Below are positions 3,076-42,657 of a stretch of DNA of 42,657 nucleotides, piece after piece; position 1 is the stretch's first letter; each line of letters begins with the position of its first letter. This DNA is from a virus (taxonomy: Duplodnaviria > Heunggongvirae > Uroviricota > Caudoviricetes). Position numbers and translations under genes: made by a program. Location: the IMG/VR virus record IMGVR_UViG_2925914267_000007, positions 1 to 42,657 of that record, one strand, 5' to 3'. A model generated the notes under the pieces. That model worked only from the letters and a program-made list of their open reading frames with translations. It had not been told where the DNA came from and did not search any database.

Positions 3076-3326
3076 TAAACACGTAAAATCTGTAACGGCT
3101 GGAAATCATTCAATACTCGCACTATCGAAAGTTCACCAGCCAACCGCAGCGCGTTCTTGCATACGACGTGGCTGCGGTCTCAACTCCGTCCCCCACCAAT
3201 CATGATTGGGCAGTACCAGTACAGCACTAGTAAAAACTGGAAATAAGCAGTCTCAGCAAAATACCGGCCAGACGGTGAGAAGACAAAAAAGATACGCAAA
3301 GTAGCCGCGGCCCTTAGTGACATGAA

Positions 3327-3349
3327 ATCCCGCTATACGGGCTTTTTTG
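3327..3349 (+). terminator. weak intrinsic terminator candidate
   Basis: Short hairpin CCCG-ctata-CGGG followed by six T. Confidence 0.3.
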
Positions 3350-3423
3350 TATCTGCACACGATTGATTATTAGGTCCGTATAGCTAATAGTGGTCTTAAC
3401 CTACATATAGAATCAGAGACTTT

Positions 3424-4119
3424 ATGAAAAAGGAAATACTCAAGGCTCTTTGCCCTACATGCGGTGGGTTACGTAACTGCACTGTGCATGGGAAGCTAAC
3501 CACTAGCTGGGAGGATTCCCAATATCCAGTTTATGGGTACCATTACCATCACCTACTCCAATGCAATGGCTGTGATACTGTCTTCTATCACCACAACGAA
3601 CACTTCAGTGAGCATACTACCCACGAATATCGTGATGGTGAATTTGTAGAAACGCCTATAGATATGATCACTACCTATCCTGCCGCTGAAACATTTCAAG
3701 CTCCGATATGGTTATCCAAGCTTGAATCAGTTGATCGTCAGCTCTTTCAAATATTTAATGAAATGTATTCTTCATATACTTCTGACCATTTCATTCTTTC
3801 GTCCATCGGTTTACGGACGATTTTTGATCGAACTGCTGAACTGTTACAAATTCACCCCGGTTTGCCGCTTGGTGAAAAAGTTGAAAAATTAAAACAAGAT
3901 GGAGTCATAGGCGACACTGAGGCATGCGTTATATCTTCAGTAATTGATGCAGGAAACGCCGCCGCACATCGCAGTTGGAGCCCGAATAAAAGTGAGTTCG
4001 AACAAATGCTAGAAGCTATAGAAAGTTTTGTCCAAAGAACTATCTTGGGCAAAAAATCACTTGAACATATAACCAAACAACTCCCACCTCGGGTTACAAG
4101 ACCTAAAAATAGTGCATAA
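3424..4119 (+). CDS. orphan zinc-ribbon protein with a C-terminal DUF4145-like domain; candidate accessory or defence gene
   Basis: 231 aa, AT-rich; N-terminal CPTCGG...CTVHG and HH..CNGCD Cys/His clusters; C-terminal GNAAAHRSW motif recalled as characteristic of DUF4145. Confidence 0.6.
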   Translation: MKKEILKALCPTCGGLRNCTVHGKLTTSWEDSQYPVYGYHYHHLLQCNGCDTVFYHHNEHFSEHTTHEYRDGEFVETPIDMITTYPAAETFQAPIWLSKLESVDRQLFQIFNEMYSSYTSDHFILSSIGLRTIFDRTAELLQIHPGLPLGEKVEKLKQDGVIGDTEACVISSVIDAGNAAAHRSWSPNKSEFEQMLEAIESFVQRTILGKKSLEHITKQLPPRVTRPKNSA

Positions 4120-4145
4120 TCCGCGATCATCAATGTGGCGTAAGG

Positions 4146-4738
4146 TTATGGTTTACTTGCTACAGGGAATTTTTTATACACCGTTGAAATACCCAGATCA
4201 TAAATCAGTGCGACTTGCTGCTGATATATTCCCGATTCAATCAACCTGCCAGCCTGCCCCCATTGTTCTACTGTCAGCTTTGGCTTTCGCCCACCGTTCC
4301 TCCCTTCTTGTCGTGCTGCGGCAAAGCCGCCCTAGTACGTTCGACAATAAGCTCTCGCTCCATTTCAGCCAAGGCACCCATCACATGAAAGAAAAAGCGC
4401 CCCATTGGTGTGCTGGTATCAATAGCATCCGTCAGGCTGCGAAAATTAACGCCACGTTCGCGCAACTCTTCCACCAGCACGACAAGATGCCGCATACTGC
4501 GCCCCAGTCGGTCCAGTTTCCAGACCACCAGCGTGTCACCTGCCGATAATGTCCTGAGCAGCTTTTTCAGTCCTGGTCTGTCGGACTTTGTACCGCTTAT
4601 CTTGTCTTCAAAAATCAGCTCACATCCTGCACAGTTCAGCGCATTACGTTGTAGATCGGTATTCTGGTCATTTGTTGATACACGTACATAGCCAATAAGT
4701 ATGTTAAATCCCCCTGGTAAAAGCAGGAATGATGCCAT
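4146..4738 (-). pseudogene. Gin/Pin/Hin-family serine DNA invertase, decayed (start codon ATA plus frameshift)
   Basis: Catalytic domain (ILIGYVRVSTNDQ...ERTRA) in one frame 4274-4738, HTH domain (AAARQEGRNGGRKPKLT...VALIYDLGISTVYKKFP) in another frame down to the TAA at 4146-4148; canonical Met codon reads ATA; apparent 1-nt loss near 4326-4331. Confidence 0.6.
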
Positions 4739-24850: not shown

Positions 24851-25171
24851 CTAAATCAGATCACCAATGTATTTTGCACTAATTGAAATTTGCATCTGAG
24901 GCATTCCGACCACAGATCCATTTAACAGGTAATCACGTCCTCGTTCCTGCAAAGAAAGACTCAATTCAAAGTTCTTTACCCCAGGGAAAACCGAGGTGAC
25001 ATTTAAATCATGCTGCGATACGCGCAGAATAAGTTGGCTACCGTCAATTTTTCCCTGATACGTAAAACCAAAATCTCCGCCGTTTACTGCATTGTTTTTG
25101 ACAACTACGGTACCATTACCAAAATCACGTTGATTGCTTCTGAAAACAACAAAATAGATACCATCTTTCAT
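24851..25171 (-). CDS. small beta-rich protein resembling GrlR-family regulators (identity unverified)
   Basis: 106 aa; MKDGIYFVVFRSN...GGD pattern recalled from GrlR; AT-rich; own terminator; sits between the lysis cassette and HNH. Confidence 0.4.
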   Translation of the reverse strand: MKDGIYFVVFRSNQRDFGNGTVVVKNNAVNGGDFGFTYQGKIDGSQLILRVSQHDLNVTSVFPGVKNFELSLSLQERGRDYLLNGSVVGMPQMQISISAKYIGDLI

Positions 25172-26273: not shown

Positions 26274-26600
26274 TTACTCCTTAGAGCCACCAAACTTATT
26301 ACCGATTACTCTCATTGCAGCCCCACGAATAGCATCGACCCCGATCAGCCCAACGCCGCCACCAATGGCAACAGAAAGAGATTTAGGCCATCCGACATAC
26401 TCAAGAGCGGATGCAAAAGTCAGTGTCAGGGCGCCACAGAGAAAAATCTCGAGCGTTTTTCGCTTCCAGCCACCACCACCGCCAAAATAGGCAATGCGCA
26501 AGCCAGCCATAACGATCGACATAATTACTGCGCCCAGTGGTGTGTCTCCACGCCACCAGCTCTGGAACAACTCCAGCCAGGTATTTGGGTTATGAGGCAT
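26274..26600 (-). CDS. holin
   Basis: 108 aa; hydrophobic segments, Gly-rich, charged C-terminus; immediately upstream of the endolysin. Confidence 0.6.
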   Translation of the reverse strand: MPHNPNTWLELFQSWWRGDTPLGAVIMSIVMAGLRIAYFGGGGGWKRKTLEIFLCGALTLTFASALEYVGWPKSLSVAIGGGVGLIGVDAIRGAAMRVIGNKFGGSKE

Positions 26601-26749
26601 TTGTAGTTATCTCTCACCTCGCTGAAACAGCAGGTGCAAATTGAGGGAACATCATGTACCGCAAATCAGAAGCGGAAACGTCAAAGAAGCCGAACCAATG
26701 GATAACTGCGGAATAGGCCTAGACCAACGAATCCCCAGCCCCAGAAACG

Positions 26750-26778
26750 ACAAAACCCGCTCGATGGCGGGTTTAAGC
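26750..26778 (-). terminator. hairpin terminator upstream of the holin (tR'-like)
   Basis: Minus-strand stem AAACCCGC / GCGGGTTT followed by TTTTGTCGTTTCT, about 150 nt before the holin start. Confidence 0.4.
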
Positions 26779-26892
26779 TGTGTGGCGAAGTAACCACTCT
26801 TAACACGATACAATTTTTTTTGCGTACGCGTTAGTTTTTTATTACTTTACTTTTTGATACTATCGGCGTGGTTACAAACAAGGAGAACAGCA

Positions 26893-27156
26893 ATGAGTAA
26901 CTACTTGGAAGTTAAGAGAAAAATTGGTCAATATGCATGTGTTACTCGGTGGGGTTTTCCCTGTGCCGAGCGTGAAATCACTTTGATACAAAATGACATT
27001 AACTCCGCGATTCAAAGTGGTAAAGTTATAAGTCGTAGCATGCTCCAAGGCATTATCAGCCGTCATGTTCCCAATACCCATTTCTTAATCACCGACAGTG
27101 TGGACAACTCTGATCTTAACACTGCATTAAGAATGCTGGCGCCAAAACAAAAATGA
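26893..27156 (+). CDS. AT-rich hypothetical protein, first gene of a two-gene cassette
   Basis: Start MSNYLEVKRK with RBS AAGGAG; 87 aa; opposite strand to the surrounding late genes; stop overlaps the next start (ATGA). Confidence 0.6.
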   Translation: MSNYLEVKRKIGQYACVTRWGFPCAEREITLIQNDINSAIQSGKVISRSMLQGIISRHVPNTHFLITDSVDNSDLNTALRMLAPKQK

Positions 27157-27893
27157 ATAATGATGTGTTTCAGATCAGCCCCGACGAAGTAACGTCGGAG
27201 CTGATTTCTGCAAAGGAAAGATTTTTACGTGGTATTCAGCCATACTTGTGTAATGGTATATCAAACCTTGCTGACCTACATGAAATTCAGCAGCATGCTT
27301 CAAAATATTTTAATACCGCTGTTAAATTAGTTCAAAAAGTAGATTTATGTAAACTGGATGACAATAAGACATTTGCCATTTCCTTAGTTGGAGACTGTCG
27401 AGCGGTTCTGGAAACTTATTTAGAATACTACGACATGATGGTGTCAAACATTAAATGCCTAGAAATTGATCCAAACAATATTGTACTGTATAGCAAAGAT
27501 GGTCTATCAAACCTCCAAAGAATCATTAAAAAGTATTCATCAAAAGATATTTACACACCTATTATTGCTGAATTTGAGTCTCGAAATTTGCCAATCGATG
27601 GATTTACTATAGGCACACCAATGAATTGGAAATTAATTGTCACTGCCATTATTGGATTTTTAAGTTTTTGTATTTTTTTATCAATTACGCTGCTAATCCC
27701 AGATTTAAATGAATTTCAAAAGAAAATGATTTTCTCTTTATATTTCATGAGCGCGGCCGTTGGAATCTCGCCATTCATTGCAAATAATATAAAGGTCAAT
27801 GGGAAGATGGCATTTCGTGGTTCGGAATTCAAAGTATCTGCTGTTGGTGGTTTAGCAGCATTGATTGTTTCTTTCATCATCCAAGTAATTTAG
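27153..27893 (+). CDS. AT-rich membrane protein with about three C-terminal transmembrane helices, second gene of the cassette
   Basis: 246 aa; soluble N-terminal ~155 aa; hydrophobic stretches WKLIVTAIIGFLSFCIFLSITLLI, MIFSLYFMSAAVGISPFIA, VSAVGGLAALIVSFIIQVI. Confidence 0.65.
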   Translation: MNNDVFQISPDEVTSELISAKERFLRGIQPYLCNGISNLADLHEIQQHASKYFNTAVKLVQKVDLCKLDDNKTFAISLVGDCRAVLETYLEYYDMMVSNIKCLEIDPNNIVLYSKDGLSNLQRIIKKYSSKDIYTPIIAEFESRNLPIDGFTIGTPMNWKLIVTAIIGFLSFCIFLSITLLIPDLNEFQKKMIFSLYFMSAAVGISPFIANNIKVNGKMAFRGSEFKVSAVGGLAALIVSFIIQVI

Positions 27894-27896
27894 CAA

Positions 27897-27914
27897 AGAG
27901 GCCCTAAGGCCTCT
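27897..27914. terminator. hairpin between the convergent cassette gene and the Q-like gene
   Basis: AGAGGCC-ctaa-GGCCTCT perfect stem; weak flanking T-runs on both strands. Confidence 0.4.
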
Positions 27915-27919
27915 TATAA

Positions 27920-28261
27920 TCATAGCATTGATAGCACACCACTAACAAAACCTAATGCTGTTTGCATATCTTTTCTAATTGTCCCATCAGAACACTTACG
28001 CTTCTTCGCAATGGTGCGTAATGAAATACCAATAACAAAGTGGGCAATAACTAACTCATATTCTTCTTGTTTATATTTACGTAACCGTGCGACACAACCG
28101 TCTATCATGATACCTTCATCATCATCACACTGGAGGCGAGACTTTTTACCGTGTGGTAAAAGCCCCTTGAAGCCTGCTGCTACCGGCTGCCAGTCCACAC
28201 CACTGTTGTCTGCTGCAGCCCATGCACCCCAGCGGTCCAATACTTCATACATATCACGCAT
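27920..28261 (-). CDS. late-gene antitermination protein Q-like (small Q family)
   Basis: Start MRDMYEV with SD GGAG; about 113 aa; position between early genes and lysis genes. Confidence 0.55.
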   Translation of the reverse strand: MRDMYEVLDRWGAWAAADNSGVDWQPVAAGFKGLLPHGKKSRLQCDDDEGIMIDGCVARLRKYKQEEYELVIAHFVIGISLRTIAKKRKCSDGTIRKDMQTALGFVSGVLSML

Positions 28262-41331: not shown

Positions 41332-41367
41332 TTTTCCCGGGTGCAGCCGGTTTTGATGGAGAAAATT

Positions 41368-41640
41368 ATGAACACCTTGTTTTTACTGATGGCTGAATTC
41401 AATACCCCAAACATTGAGCTGTCAGCTGTATGCCAAAAGTATTTCGGTATGAGCCCTAACACAGCAGAAGCGAAAGCAAATGCATGCCAATTGCCGATCC
41501 CGACTTATCGTGTTGGTACATCACAGAAAGCAAAGCGCTGCATCAACATTCAGGATCTTGCTGAATATATAGATAAACGGCGTGAAGAAGGCAGAATTGA
41601 ATGGGAGAGGGTAAGAACAAATAGGAAAATAAATAACTAA
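41368..41640 (+). CDS. PrtN-family small DNA-binding protein; candidate excisionase or activator
   Basis: Start MNTLFLLMAEF with SD GGAG; family assignment from memory. Confidence 0.4.
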   Translation: MNTLFLLMAEFNTPNIELSAVCQKYFGMSPNTAEAKANACQLPIPTYRVGTSQKAKRCINIQDLAEYIDKRREEGRIEWERVRTNRKINN

Positions 41641-41644
41641 TCTC

Positions 41645-41674
41645 ACAAAAAACCCGCTTCGGCGGGTTAGTTTT
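41645..41674. terminator. bidirectional intrinsic terminator between convergent genes
   Basis: AAAAAA then stem AACCCGC-ttcg-GCGGGTT then TTTT; overlaps the stop codon of the YafO-like gene. Confidence 0.6.
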
Positions 41675-42101
41675 CATCTTTATAATTCTGGGCAATTCGC
41701 GCCAGATAGCTCATCACATCATGTTTTCTTGCTTTTTCATGTGCATCGGGATACATAATAGCAATGAGTGAATATTTATTCTCATAAAGCTCACCTTGGA
41801 CATACACAAGACAAGCATCATTATCAGGATCACCTTTCTTGCAGACCCTATCCGGTTGTGGAAGTTTCTCGGGAAACTTGTTTGGCGGTAGACAAAGATG
41901 GATATGCATCAACCCAGCCCGAAAAGCACCATAGGGCTGAGTATACGCAACGTCCCTACCGAAATAATGCGGAAGCTCACCGGTTGCTTTGTATCTCTTG
42001 AAATCATCAATGATAGAAGACTCTAGCTCCGGGAATTTGAGAAAAACTTCATCAAAAAATTCAGCTCTAGTTTCTGGATTAATAGAGACTTCTAGATGCA
42101 T
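41667..42101 (-). CDS. YafO-family toxin-like protein
   Basis: 144 aa; HIHL...PFP...LVYVQGE...LIAIMYPDAHEKAR parallels YafO as recalled; AT-rich. Confidence 0.55.
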   Translation of the reverse strand: MHLEVSINPETRAEFFDEVFLKFPELESSIIDDFKRYKATGELPHYFGRDVAYTQPYGAFRAGLMHIHLCLPPNKFPEKLPQPDRVCKKGDPDNDACLVYVQGELYENKYSLIAIMYPDAHEKARKHDVMSYLARIAQNYKDEN

Positions 42102-42117
42102 GGTCGTCCGCTATCGG

Positions 42118-42657
42118 TTAGTGAAATTGCATCGATTTTAGCTTATTTGATGTGTGACTAGCTAGTGCTGCAATTCCAGCAAGATCCGCGCGCCCGCTAA
42201 ACGTAACAGTTTCTTTAAATATGCTCTTTATGTAATTGTTAAGGCGAGTGACAGATGAGCGAGCTTTAGCAATATGACGCCAGTAAACCTTCAGTTCTGA
42301 CCTGATAAATTCAGGCAGAGGCGATTCAATTGTACGCTTCACTTCTTCTTCAAAAGCACGCAGGAACATTTCGCATGCCTCTGTCGTATCTGTCCCGTTT
42401 TTGGAAACAAACTCGCGAGCATCTTGGCTATTAAGATCAATCAAACAGATATAGTAGTCATCTGCTGCAATTGTTAACTTTTGCAAGATCTCCTTACCCT
42501 CTTCCATTCTGCGTGAGAATTCCTCAACAGAAGGAGAGTACTCAAAAGGTTTAGCAATCACAGGGGCTGGCTGGATGATGAACTCCTGCGCCATAGCAGC
42601 AGGACAAGCCAGAGGCCCGCACAATGCAGCAAAAGTAATGGCGTTAAACGGATTCAT
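42118..42657 (-). CDS. AT-rich hypothetical protein with signal-peptide-like N-terminus, upstream partner of the YafO-like gene
   Basis: 179 aa; ATG is the last three bases of the window; ITFAALCGPLACPAAMA hydrophobic start; 16-bp spacer to the toxin-like gene. Confidence 0.5.
   Translation of the reverse strand: MNPFNAITFAALCGPLACPAAMAQEFIIQPAPVIAKPFEYSPSVEEFSRRMEEGKEILQKLTIAADDYYICLIDLNSQDAREFVSKNGTDTTEACEMFLRAFEEEVKRTIESPLPEFIRSELKVYWRHIAKARSSVTRLNNYIKSIFKETVTFSGRADLAGIAALASHTSNKLKSMQFH

Follow-up and report, generated by a model that had tools for sequence, protein, structure and literature searches.

We analyzed a stretch of 42,657 nucleotides from a virus of the class Caudoviricetes (Duplodnaviria; Heunggongvirae; Uroviricota; IMG/VR virus record IMGVR_UViG_2925914267_000007, positions 1 to 42,657 of that record), which is referred to below as the window. 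Between the Q antiterminator gene and the holin gene of this prophage lies a cassette of two genes, ORF1 and ORF2, which encode a small soluble protein and a protein with a membrane region, respectively. On balance, its sequence and surroundings lead us to favor the view that the cassette is an undescribed anti-phage defense or exclusion module, in which a membrane effector would be controlled by a small protein; we are less confident about the mechanistic details than about defense or exclusion as such. A first-pass annotation, made from the letters of the window and a list of its open reading frames, had proposed an abortive-infection or exclusion module, and genomic context lends support to that proposal: homologs of the cassette occupy the P2 Fun(Z) hotspot and are found beside Gabija, gop-beta-cII, Hachiman, Olokun, PifA and ZorD genes, from which an anti-phage function may be inferred. 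The cassette is best classed with a kind already known, the defense cassettes of prophages or islands that act through a membrane effector, and it is made up of two uncharacterized protein families.

Coding status and foreign origin of the cassette

As the first-pass annotation had described, the two genes overlap and are opposite in strand to their neighbors. Both lie on the plus strand, the ORF1 stop and the ORF2 start share an ATGA overlap, and the flanking Q and holin genes are on the minus strand, with genes for a GH24 lysozyme and spanins downstream of the holin. The start of ORF1 was taken at the ATG at 26893, as in RefSeq and in all homologs, the mechanical list of open reading frames opening at a TTG at 26854. 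Both genes are also annotated in RefSeq, as hypothetical proteins. The GC content of the cassette is 36.1%, compared with a mean of 50.5% for the 1-kb windows (standard deviation 5.1; z = -2.9), and no kilobase of the window has a lower value, so that the low GC noted earlier relative to the flanking late genes is real. Homologs of the cassette in E. coli, Klebsiella, Citrobacter and a P2-like phage have a GC content of 0.35-0.36 within flanks of 0.49-0.51. In comparison with a 94%-identical E. coli variant, ORF1 has a ratio of nonsynonymous to synonymous substitution rates (dN/dS) of 0.45 and ORF2 one of 0.22, and protein identity to the versions from Klebsiella and Citrobacter is still 51-58% despite saturated synonymous sites. 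ORF1 and ORF2 are real coding sequences under purifying selection, and the cassette is foreign, horizontally acquired cargo (a moron).

Conserved placement in phage cargo sites and defense islands

Homologs at 56-92% identity were found only in prophages of E. coli, Citrobacter, Klebsiella and Enterobacter, where they are always convergent with a PF06530 Q gene. Pairs that are 51-58% identical occupy the same slot in Klebsiella, Citrobacter and Enterobacter prophages in which the holin (PF05106 or PF16083) and the replication modules differ. In a P2-like phage (P2DC1), a homologous pair is encoded between tail genes G and FI; its ORF2 is 27% identical (E 3e-12) and its ORF1 is 45% identical over 56 amino acids, and the G gene of this phage was confirmed by 82% identity to P2 G. 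In reference P2 the G-FI interval holds Fun(Z), which is non-essential and blocks T5. Vassallo et al. (2022; PMC9519451) report the Fun(Z) locus to be a second P2 defense hotspot, which holds three of the systems that they validated.

Outside phages, a Pseudomonas version of the cassette belongs to an island linked to an integrase, where it has gop-beta-cII genes (beta E 3e-22, cII E 2.5e-37) on one side, Gabija (GajA E 5e-205, GajB E 1e-137) on the other, and Abi_C and AbiJ genes close by, and a P. aeruginosa plasmid copy adjoins Hachiman HamA (E 8e-131). A species-level scan, in which one genome per species was taken, returned 28 loci from alpha-, beta-, gamma-, zeta- and epsilon-proteobacteria, Desulfobulbus and one Ignavibacteriales genome. 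Tests of large flanking genes covered nine of these loci, and at four of the nine the genes encode Olokun OloA/OloB, Gabija GajB, PifA or Zorya ZorD. Recurrent placement in islands and hotspots of unrelated elements, a generic mark of defense systems, is therefore a property of this family.

The two families are strictly paired, and the pair travels as a unit between unrelated elements. One or two ORF1-family genes are found directly upstream of the ORF2 homolog, on the same strand, at 27 of the 28 species-level loci; the single exception ends at a contig edge.

Domain organization of the membrane protein

The first-pass annotation had counted about three C-terminal transmembrane (TM) helices in the 246-residue ORF2 protein, and both hydropathy and AlphaFold agree with this count: hydrophobic segments lie at approximately 160-183, 191-211 and 228-246, and modeled helices at 159-181, 187-209 and 230-245. 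There is no signal peptide and the loop 208-232 holds four lysine or arginine residues, and therefore the N-terminus is predicted to be inside and the C-terminus outside. The N-terminal domain is modeled as helices 10-34, 39-61, 72-103 and 117-143, with pLDDT values of 84-92 over most of its length, and carries the motifs YFN, C82, LQR (NMQRMV in the family) and a juxtamembrane LPxxGF. In the family consensus YFNxxE, the ORF2 of the window has valine at the position of E57. Across 44 ORF2-family sequences F53, Q122, L146, G150 and F151 are invariant, and the small residues G168, G211, G232 and A235 are conserved in the family alignment.

ORF2 matches phrog_5814 (E 2.7e-14) and has the corresponding profile of an N-terminal helical domain followed by TM helices, including YFN, QR and LPxxGF. 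Among 1.84 billion cluster representatives, a search with the family profile recovered about 79 ORF2-family clusters (50% identity) at E<=1e-3 and 34 at E<=1e-10, nearly all of them with proteins of 245-270 amino acids that combine the N-terminal helical domain with two or three TM helices. Some variants are longer. In one of 562 amino acids (P0090), the N-terminal helical domain is followed by one TM helix and an alpha/beta hydrolase (PGAP1/DUF676-like); the hydrolase stands in place of most of the TM region, which marks the N-terminal domain as the regulatory part. Variants of 469 amino acids (P0070; L054:9995-11404) carry a DUF3298 domain after the third TM helix (E 1.9e-9 and 6.7e-7). DUF3298 is an extracytoplasmic domain, known for example from the lysozyme-binding part of RsiV, and its position in these variants supports an external C-terminus for ORF2. 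A constant N-terminal helical domain joined to a variable, membrane-directed part suggests a sensor or adaptor with a swappable effector, a pattern typical of defense systems, and the long variants likewise suggest periplasmic sensing and effector swapping within the ORF2 family.

The small partner protein and the three-gene form of the family

ORF1 is a small alpha/beta protein, for which the best AlphaFold model has a pLDDT of 80 and the other four have 55-66. It matches phrog_31842 (E 5.6e-7) and resembles its relatives in its length of about 85 amino acids, its DNSD motif and its position upstream of an ORF2 homolog. In nine diverse sequences of the small proteins DNSD is invariant, within the pattern G[VAI]DNSD[LYI]NTLL. 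The ORF1-family profile gave a marginal, near full-length alignment with the helical domain of HopAB2 and HopAB3, which are type III effectors of Pseudomonas syringae (3svi_A and 3tjy_A; E 0.049 and 0.08; hhalign probability 72%); an insertion in this alignment falls within the DNSD motif, and a structural search gave no HopAB match.

The layout of a small protein paired with a membrane protein, which had been emphasized in the first-pass annotation, is accurate for the window but describes the family only in part, as most of its loci have three genes and the pair is a reduced form. Two tandem small paralogs are present at no fewer than 17 of the 28 species-level loci (at least 17). When profiles were made for the "first" paralog and for the "second" one, which is proximal to the membrane gene, the ORF1 of the window scored 46.3 bits with the second and 39.3 bits with the first. 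The P2-like homolog of ORF1 scored 71 and 48 bits, respectively, and other single proteins from enterobacteria also favor the second type. Since the ORF1 of the window scores as the second paralog of a mostly three-gene family, we regard the cassette as a reduced, two-gene form of it. At a Pseudomonas inefficax locus (L051 6297-7685 and 8840-10092), two complete systems of small genes and membrane gene are encoded in tandem.

Searches against known families and systems

The first-pass annotation recognized neither protein, and Pfam, NCBIfam, PADLOC, PDB sequence and fold searches likewise returned no informative match. Scans of Pfam, NCBIfam and PADLOC gave no match for ORF1 or ORF2. Against PADLOC-DB 2.0.0, whose models cover PD-T4-10, the Rousset systems and the PDC candidates, the sole hit of either protein at E<=1 was a spurious DndH fragment (E 0.0032, 12.8 bits), and no model matched the P2-like pair or the Pseudomonas pair. 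Pfam searches of 44 ORF2-family members gave scattered weak hits only, a PDB sequence search with the ORF2 family profile returned nothing, and Foldseek against viral models returned nothing at E<=0.001. Fold searches of the ORF2 N-terminal domain gave generic helical-bundle matches only. Homology to phage housekeeping proteins, which the first-pass annotation had named as an outcome that would speak against its proposal, was looked for by profile and fold searches and was not found. In the literature search, no paper that was found mentions the RefSeq accessions or PHROG identifiers of the two proteins.

Several known systems were considered as possible identities of the cassette and rejected. 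PD-T4-10 is about 1.6 kb long, compared with 1.0 kb for the cassette, and its model gave no match. Rst_3HP (three hypothetical proteins, Rousset et al. 2022) gave no PADLOC match; its proteins, taken as those listed just before the DprA entry in the table of that paper, are far longer than 85 amino acids and differ in sequence. The P4 and P2 systems of a 2026 preprint (Bandua, Aernus, Toga, Reve, Crouga and Hailong) have different domain contents. Membership in lambda RexAB was set aside, as neither protein has a Pfam or PADLOC hit, and so was membership among phage holins and antiholins, given that there is no Pfam hit and that the cassette is on the opposite strand and outside the late leader.

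The cargo slot between Q and the late leader

The claim that the cassette is opposite-strand cargo inserted between Q and the lysis genes is borne out by related phages, in which the slot is variable or empty. Known phages (such as SfII and SfIV) match only the first 240 nucleotides of 26601-27919, that is, 26601-26840. This part contains what we call the late-leader block, approximately 65 nucleotides that are near-invariant in six aligned phages carrying different cargo; the terminator that follows the block has a different sequence in the Klebsiella and Citrobacter versions. In the cargo-free phage PhiR5_1, in which Q is 57% identical, the late-leader block begins about 40 nucleotides past the Q stop with nothing in between. 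The upstream third of the block varies with the Q allele (CTAACGCGTACGC in the window and TTAGTGCGGTCCGC in PhiR5_1, where the comparison block is L021 2995-3075), as would be expected of a Q-binding element. By analogy with PR'-6S-tR' of lambda, the late-leader block may comprise the late promoter, the Q-loading site and tR'. Sigma-70 consensus hexamers were looked for in the block and none could be resolved, and a text search for the block returned only a deletion primer. A promoter-like site in the 3' end of Q (27948-27919) was set aside as the late promoter because the Q-allele-specific block is found beyond the cargo, and directly after Q in the cargo-free phage.

We define the cargo slot, a recombination hotspot, as the interval from the Q stop to the late-leader block (Table 1). 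The first-pass annotation had equated it with the place where lambdoid phages carry Stx toxins, and here it needs correction: the cassette lies between the Q stop and the late-leader block, and stx of both Stx2a_1447 and phiP27 is downstream of the block, so that the Stx slot is a neighboring one. By megablast, the Q/leader framework is present in 1144 of 5426 complete E. coli genomes, and the cassette in 21 of the 5426, always in the Q-to-leader slot. The hotspot is a common one and is apparently undescribed. In one E. coli genome (NZ_CM169495.1 2289880-2290951) the cassette match overlaps an annotated phage tail tape measure gene, which suggests a rearranged or mis-assembled prophage.

The opposite-strand cargos that occupy this slot in Stx2a_1447 and mEp460 have no PADLOC hit and sub-threshold Pfam matches at most, and the cdtI pair, also on the opposite strand, has no PADLOC hit. 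The cargos of these three phages are further candidates for defense genes, one of them on an Stx2a-converting phage.

Expression signals at the cassette boundaries

The cassette has a ribosome-binding site of its own, as reported in the first-pass annotation (Table 1). Upstream of it, the pattern TGnTAnnnT is kept in five of five lambdoid versions (TGATACTAT in the window, TGATATGAT, TGTTATAGT and, in two versions, TGATAAAGT), the adjacent bases diverging, and this site is a putative promoter of the cassette. The hairpins that had been described as flanking the cassette proved to be of two kinds. The one at 27896-27915 does belong to the cassette: it occupies the 26-nucleotide gap that separates the convergent stops of ORF2 and Q, and a hairpin of another sequence takes its place in the versions from Klebsiella, Citrobacter and Enterobacter and also follows other cargos of the slot. 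It probably terminates transcription in both directions and marks the right end of the cargo. The upstream hairpin (stem 26774-26753) is the minus-strand terminator within the conserved late-operon leader, a part of the phage rather than of the cassette. An Rfam scan of 26500-28000 found no RNA family.

Table 1. Features of the cassette and its surroundings (positions in the window) and cargo found in the same slot of related phages (positions, where given, preceded by a locus label); aa, amino acids
Feature	Position	Strand	Description
Holin gene, first of the lysis cassette	26274-26600	-	lambda family, PF05106 E 9.8e-25
Late-leader block, intrinsic terminator and T-rich tail	26743-26834	-	CTAACGCGTACGCAAAAA...GTTAAGAGTGGTTACTTCGCCACACAGCTTAA; left boundary of the slot, outside the cassette
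Putative extended -10 promoter	26855-26863	+	TG at 26855-26856, hexamer TACTAT at 26858-26863; ~30 nt upstream of the ORF1 ATG
Shine-Dalgarno sequence of ORF1	26880-26885	+	AAGGAG, 7 nt before the ATG at 26893; read from the sequence
ORF1	26893-27156	+	87 aa from ATG; soluble protein; invariant C-terminal motif SVDNSDLNTALR
ORF2	27153-27893	+	246 aa; helical domain and membrane region
ORF2 N-terminal cytoplasmic helical bundle	27153-27620	+	residues 1 to ~156
ORF2 C-terminal membrane region	27630-27893 (including stop)	+	three predicted transmembrane helices
Hairpin	27896-27915		AAGAGGCC-CTAA-GGCCTCTT; 8-bp GC-rich stem; fold energy -13.4 kcal/mol
Q antiterminator gene	27920-28261	-	PF06530 E 3.4e-45; 113 aa in RefSeq; TTG-start ORF extends to 28276
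Slot cargo of SfII			PDC-M53A/B (SfII_50/SfII_49), PADLOC defense candidate; E 2e-32, 3e-54
Slot cargo of Stx2a_1447	L011 2630-4193		343 + 179 aa pair
Slot cargo of cdtI	L020 3156-4544		313 + 147 aa pair
Slot cargo of mEp460	L012 2642-3568		308-aa ORF
Slot cargo of phiP27			GIY-YIG nuclease

Proposed mechanism and alternative explanations

If the cassette is a defense module, its own promoter would drive its transcription in the lysogen, in the direction opposite to that of the late genes. ORF1 would be made in coupled stoichiometry through the ATGA overlap and would bind the cytoplasmic domain of ORF2, acting as a switch: either as an antitoxin-like hold on the effector or as the sensor of a phage trigger through its invariant DNSD surface. 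The cytoplasmic helical domain of ORF2, itself an inner-membrane protein, could serve as the receiver of the signal. A trigger from a foreign phage would change the interaction between ORF1 and ORF2 and release or activate the effector; the three-helix module would then oligomerize or open, and the membrane would be depolarized or permeabilized. Infection would abort, and the infected lysogen would no longer support phage growth. Expression in lysogens, ORF1-ORF2 binding and a membrane-damage output are, like the anti-phage function, what we infer from the features described above. As a matter of speculation, the cassette, which is convergent with Q and separated from it by a hairpin alone, could be silenced on induction by transcription that reads through from the early operon. 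Such silencing would follow a logic similar to that of the non-contiguous operon described for Tai of phi80 (PMC11364771).

A more specific version of the defense reading can also be formulated, which we hold only tentatively and consider unlikely in its entirety. The pair might be the minimal form of an undescribed and widely dispersed anti-phage family of three components, in which two DNSD paralogs would form a trigger-binding switch and the helical-domain/three-TM or lipase-like module would provide the killing or blocking output. The trigger could be genome injection or a breach of the cell wall perceived at the inner membrane, with the periplasmic DUF3298 variants sensing phage muralytic activity.

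Several observations weigh against a defense function. All of the functional support is guilt by association, and at five of the nine species-level loci tested the large flanking gene gave no PADLOC hit. Many neighbors are housekeeping genes, according to family counts of 110 neighbor proteins, although the pooled neighborhoods also hold defense-type ATPases, helicases and plasmid genes. The generic helical-bundle matches mean that neither a sensor function nor an enzymatic one can be read from the ORF2 N-terminal domain, and only one of the five AlphaFold models of ORF1 is confident. Finally, three TM helices fit equally well with a passive block to injection or with a membrane toxin that merely stabilizes its element.

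The passive block corresponds to superinfection exclusion, as carried out by genome-entry exclusion systems such as P22 SieA, T4 Imm and HK97 gp15: ORF2, with ORF1, would stop the incoming genome at the inner membrane and the cell would survive. This would suit a polytopic inner-membrane protein that is encoded by a prophage under its own putative promoter, as well as the homologous pair that stands in for the exclusion gene Fun(Z) in the P2-like phage, and the DUF3298 domain of the long variants would face the periplasm, suggesting envelope-side interactions. However, known exclusion proteins are usually the products of single genes confined to phages, whereas this family has one or two small partners and is common in chromosomal defense islands beside Gabija, Olokun and Zorya genes, and the alpha/beta-hydrolase variant hints at an active, destructive output; we think pure exclusion rather improbable. 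We give a smaller chance to a toxin-antitoxin or addiction module, with ORF2 as a membrane toxin and ORF1 as its antitoxin, which would stabilize the prophage or island without a dedicated anti-phage role. The ATGA overlap of a small upstream gene with a larger downstream gene gives the appearance of such a module, as does the carriage of the genes by mobile elements, namely prophages, an integrase-linked island and a plasmid, and the validated system PD-T4-10 illustrates that two-ORF modules can be true toxin-antitoxin pairs (PMC9519451). The same source shows that such toxin-antitoxin pairs do defend against phage, and to this extent addiction overlaps with defense. Repeated occurrence in phage cargo hotspots and beside defense systems in unrelated taxa is nevertheless not expected of pure addiction, and two paralogous small genes would be unusual for an antitoxin.

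The remaining two explanations assign the cassette a role unrelated to other phages. A lysogenic-conversion pair would alter host physiology or the envelope, with effects on stress tolerance, colonization or virulence. Lambdoid morons near the Q and lysis genes do include stx, which lies in the same inter-module interval of Stx2a_1447 and phiP27, and the hosts of the cassette are human, animal and environmental isolates; but the occurrence of the family in soil, marine and plant-associated Proteobacteria, Desulfobulbus and Ignavibacteriales counts against a host-specific virulence role, and the neighborhoods contain defense rather than virulence genes, which leaves conversion with a slim chance. 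It is highly improbable that the cassette is an accessory regulator of lysis or late expression of the resident phage, for example an antiholin-like or lysis-timing factor. The position between Q and the holin and the membrane location of ORF2 would be consistent with this role, but the cassette runs on the other strand, is not part of the late operon and has a putative promoter of its own, and it is missing from most phages that share its Q and lysis-gene surroundings. It is also found with two holin families, in the tail-gene interval of the P2-like phage and in non-phage islands, and has no match to any holin family. We therefore continue to favor defense or exclusion with a membrane effector.

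If this is correct, the cassette represents a compact (1 kb) defense family made of two protein families without described relatives, at a time when new defense families turn up often. The interval from the Q stop to the late leader would be a defense-cargo hotspot of a very common prophage framework of E. coli and Shigella, open to systematic mining as the P2 and P4 hotspots were. A two-gene version of a three-gene system would offer a simple setting for the control of a membrane effector by a small protein. Carriage by phages of the SfII, phiP27 and Stx2 types, which share the Q/late-leader framework, could affect the growth of phages, therapeutic ones included, on lysogens.

Other features of the prophage

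A second low-GC patch (approximately 0.39-0.41) is located between the spanin genes and the HNH/terminase genes and contains a minus-strand gene (24851-25171) for a GrlR-like protein of 106 amino acids (PF16518 E 6.6e-6, just under the Pfam cutoff; "GrlR family regulatory protein" in RefSeq). The 94%-variant prophage (L002), collinear in other respects, lacks the gene, and the site has the look of a further cargo slot immediately before the packaging module. The Tai defense genes of phi80 sit at the corresponding position upstream of the packaging module (PMC11364771). Other 1-kb stretches of low GC (0.39-0.42) are found at approximately 11650-13150, 3200-4250 and 41350-42550.

An IS3-family element lies within a KilA-N gene at 29758-31000 (two pseudogene halves in the RefSeq annotation of the identical prophage, L001), and its ALIL frameshift pseudoknot was recognized at 30574-30690 (RF01497, 116 bits). 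On the minus strand, a C4 antisense RNA (34908-34995; RF01695, 67 bits) and an isrK Hfq-binding RNA (35020-35096; RF01394, 60 bits) are encoded side by side, which suggests that the prophage carries an antirepressor module under antisense control of the P1/P7 type.

Comparison with known systems

The closest functional parallels are RexAB of lambda and the gp30/31 pairs of the mycobacteriophages Sbash and Butters, which are prophage-encoded like the cassette and likewise combine a cytoplasmic protein with a polytopic inner-membrane partner. RexAB-type systems and the cassette are presumably both expressed in the lysogen independently of lytic genes, and the proposed output in each case is that infected cells lose membrane integrity or potential. 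The Pfam and PADLOC comparisons revealed no similarity to RexAB in sequence or profile, and the organization is different: the cassette fuses a sensor-like domain to a membrane region within 246 amino acids and has a partner of 87 amino acids, its wider family has two small paralogs, and it is located at Q and the late leader, whereas RexAB is in the immunity region.

PD-T4-10 is similar to the cassette in that it consists of two overlapping ORFs without predicted domains. It is described in PMC9519451 as a two-ORF system of E. coli mobile elements that acts by abortive infection, its second ORF being toxic and the first neutralizing. In the text consulted, no membrane domain is reported for PD-T4-10, whereas the ORF2 of the cassette is predicted to have one.

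Two other comparisons concern location. Fun(Z) of P2 and the pair of P2DC1 share the G-FI interval and the strand opposite the tail genes, and Fun(Z) is a non-essential lysogenic-conversion gene. However, Fun(Z) is a single protein of 528 amino acids, and its relation to the cassette family is positional, not homologous; reference P2 was not among the hits of a tblastn search with ORF2. PDC-M53, itself a candidate only, likewise consists of two genes on the opposite strand and fills exactly the Q-to-leader slot, there in a phage whose framework is closely related, but its proteins (340 and 194 amino acids) are unrelated to ORF1 and ORF2, with no cross-match.

The cassette can also be compared with defense systems that use TM effectors, namely CBASS and Pycsar with TM effectors and the hydrolase + 3TM and 2TM-1TM-TIR systems of Rousset. 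Unlike these, the cassette has no cyclase, TIR domain or other signal-generating enzyme and no Pfam or PADLOC match to their effectors, and the partners in its family are instead one or two DNSD proteins of about 85 amino acids. What the cassette shares with them is the format of a small defense cassette with a membrane output of two to four helices, and the swapping of TM and hydrolase (lipase-like) effectors is common to the TM-effector systems and the ORF2 family.

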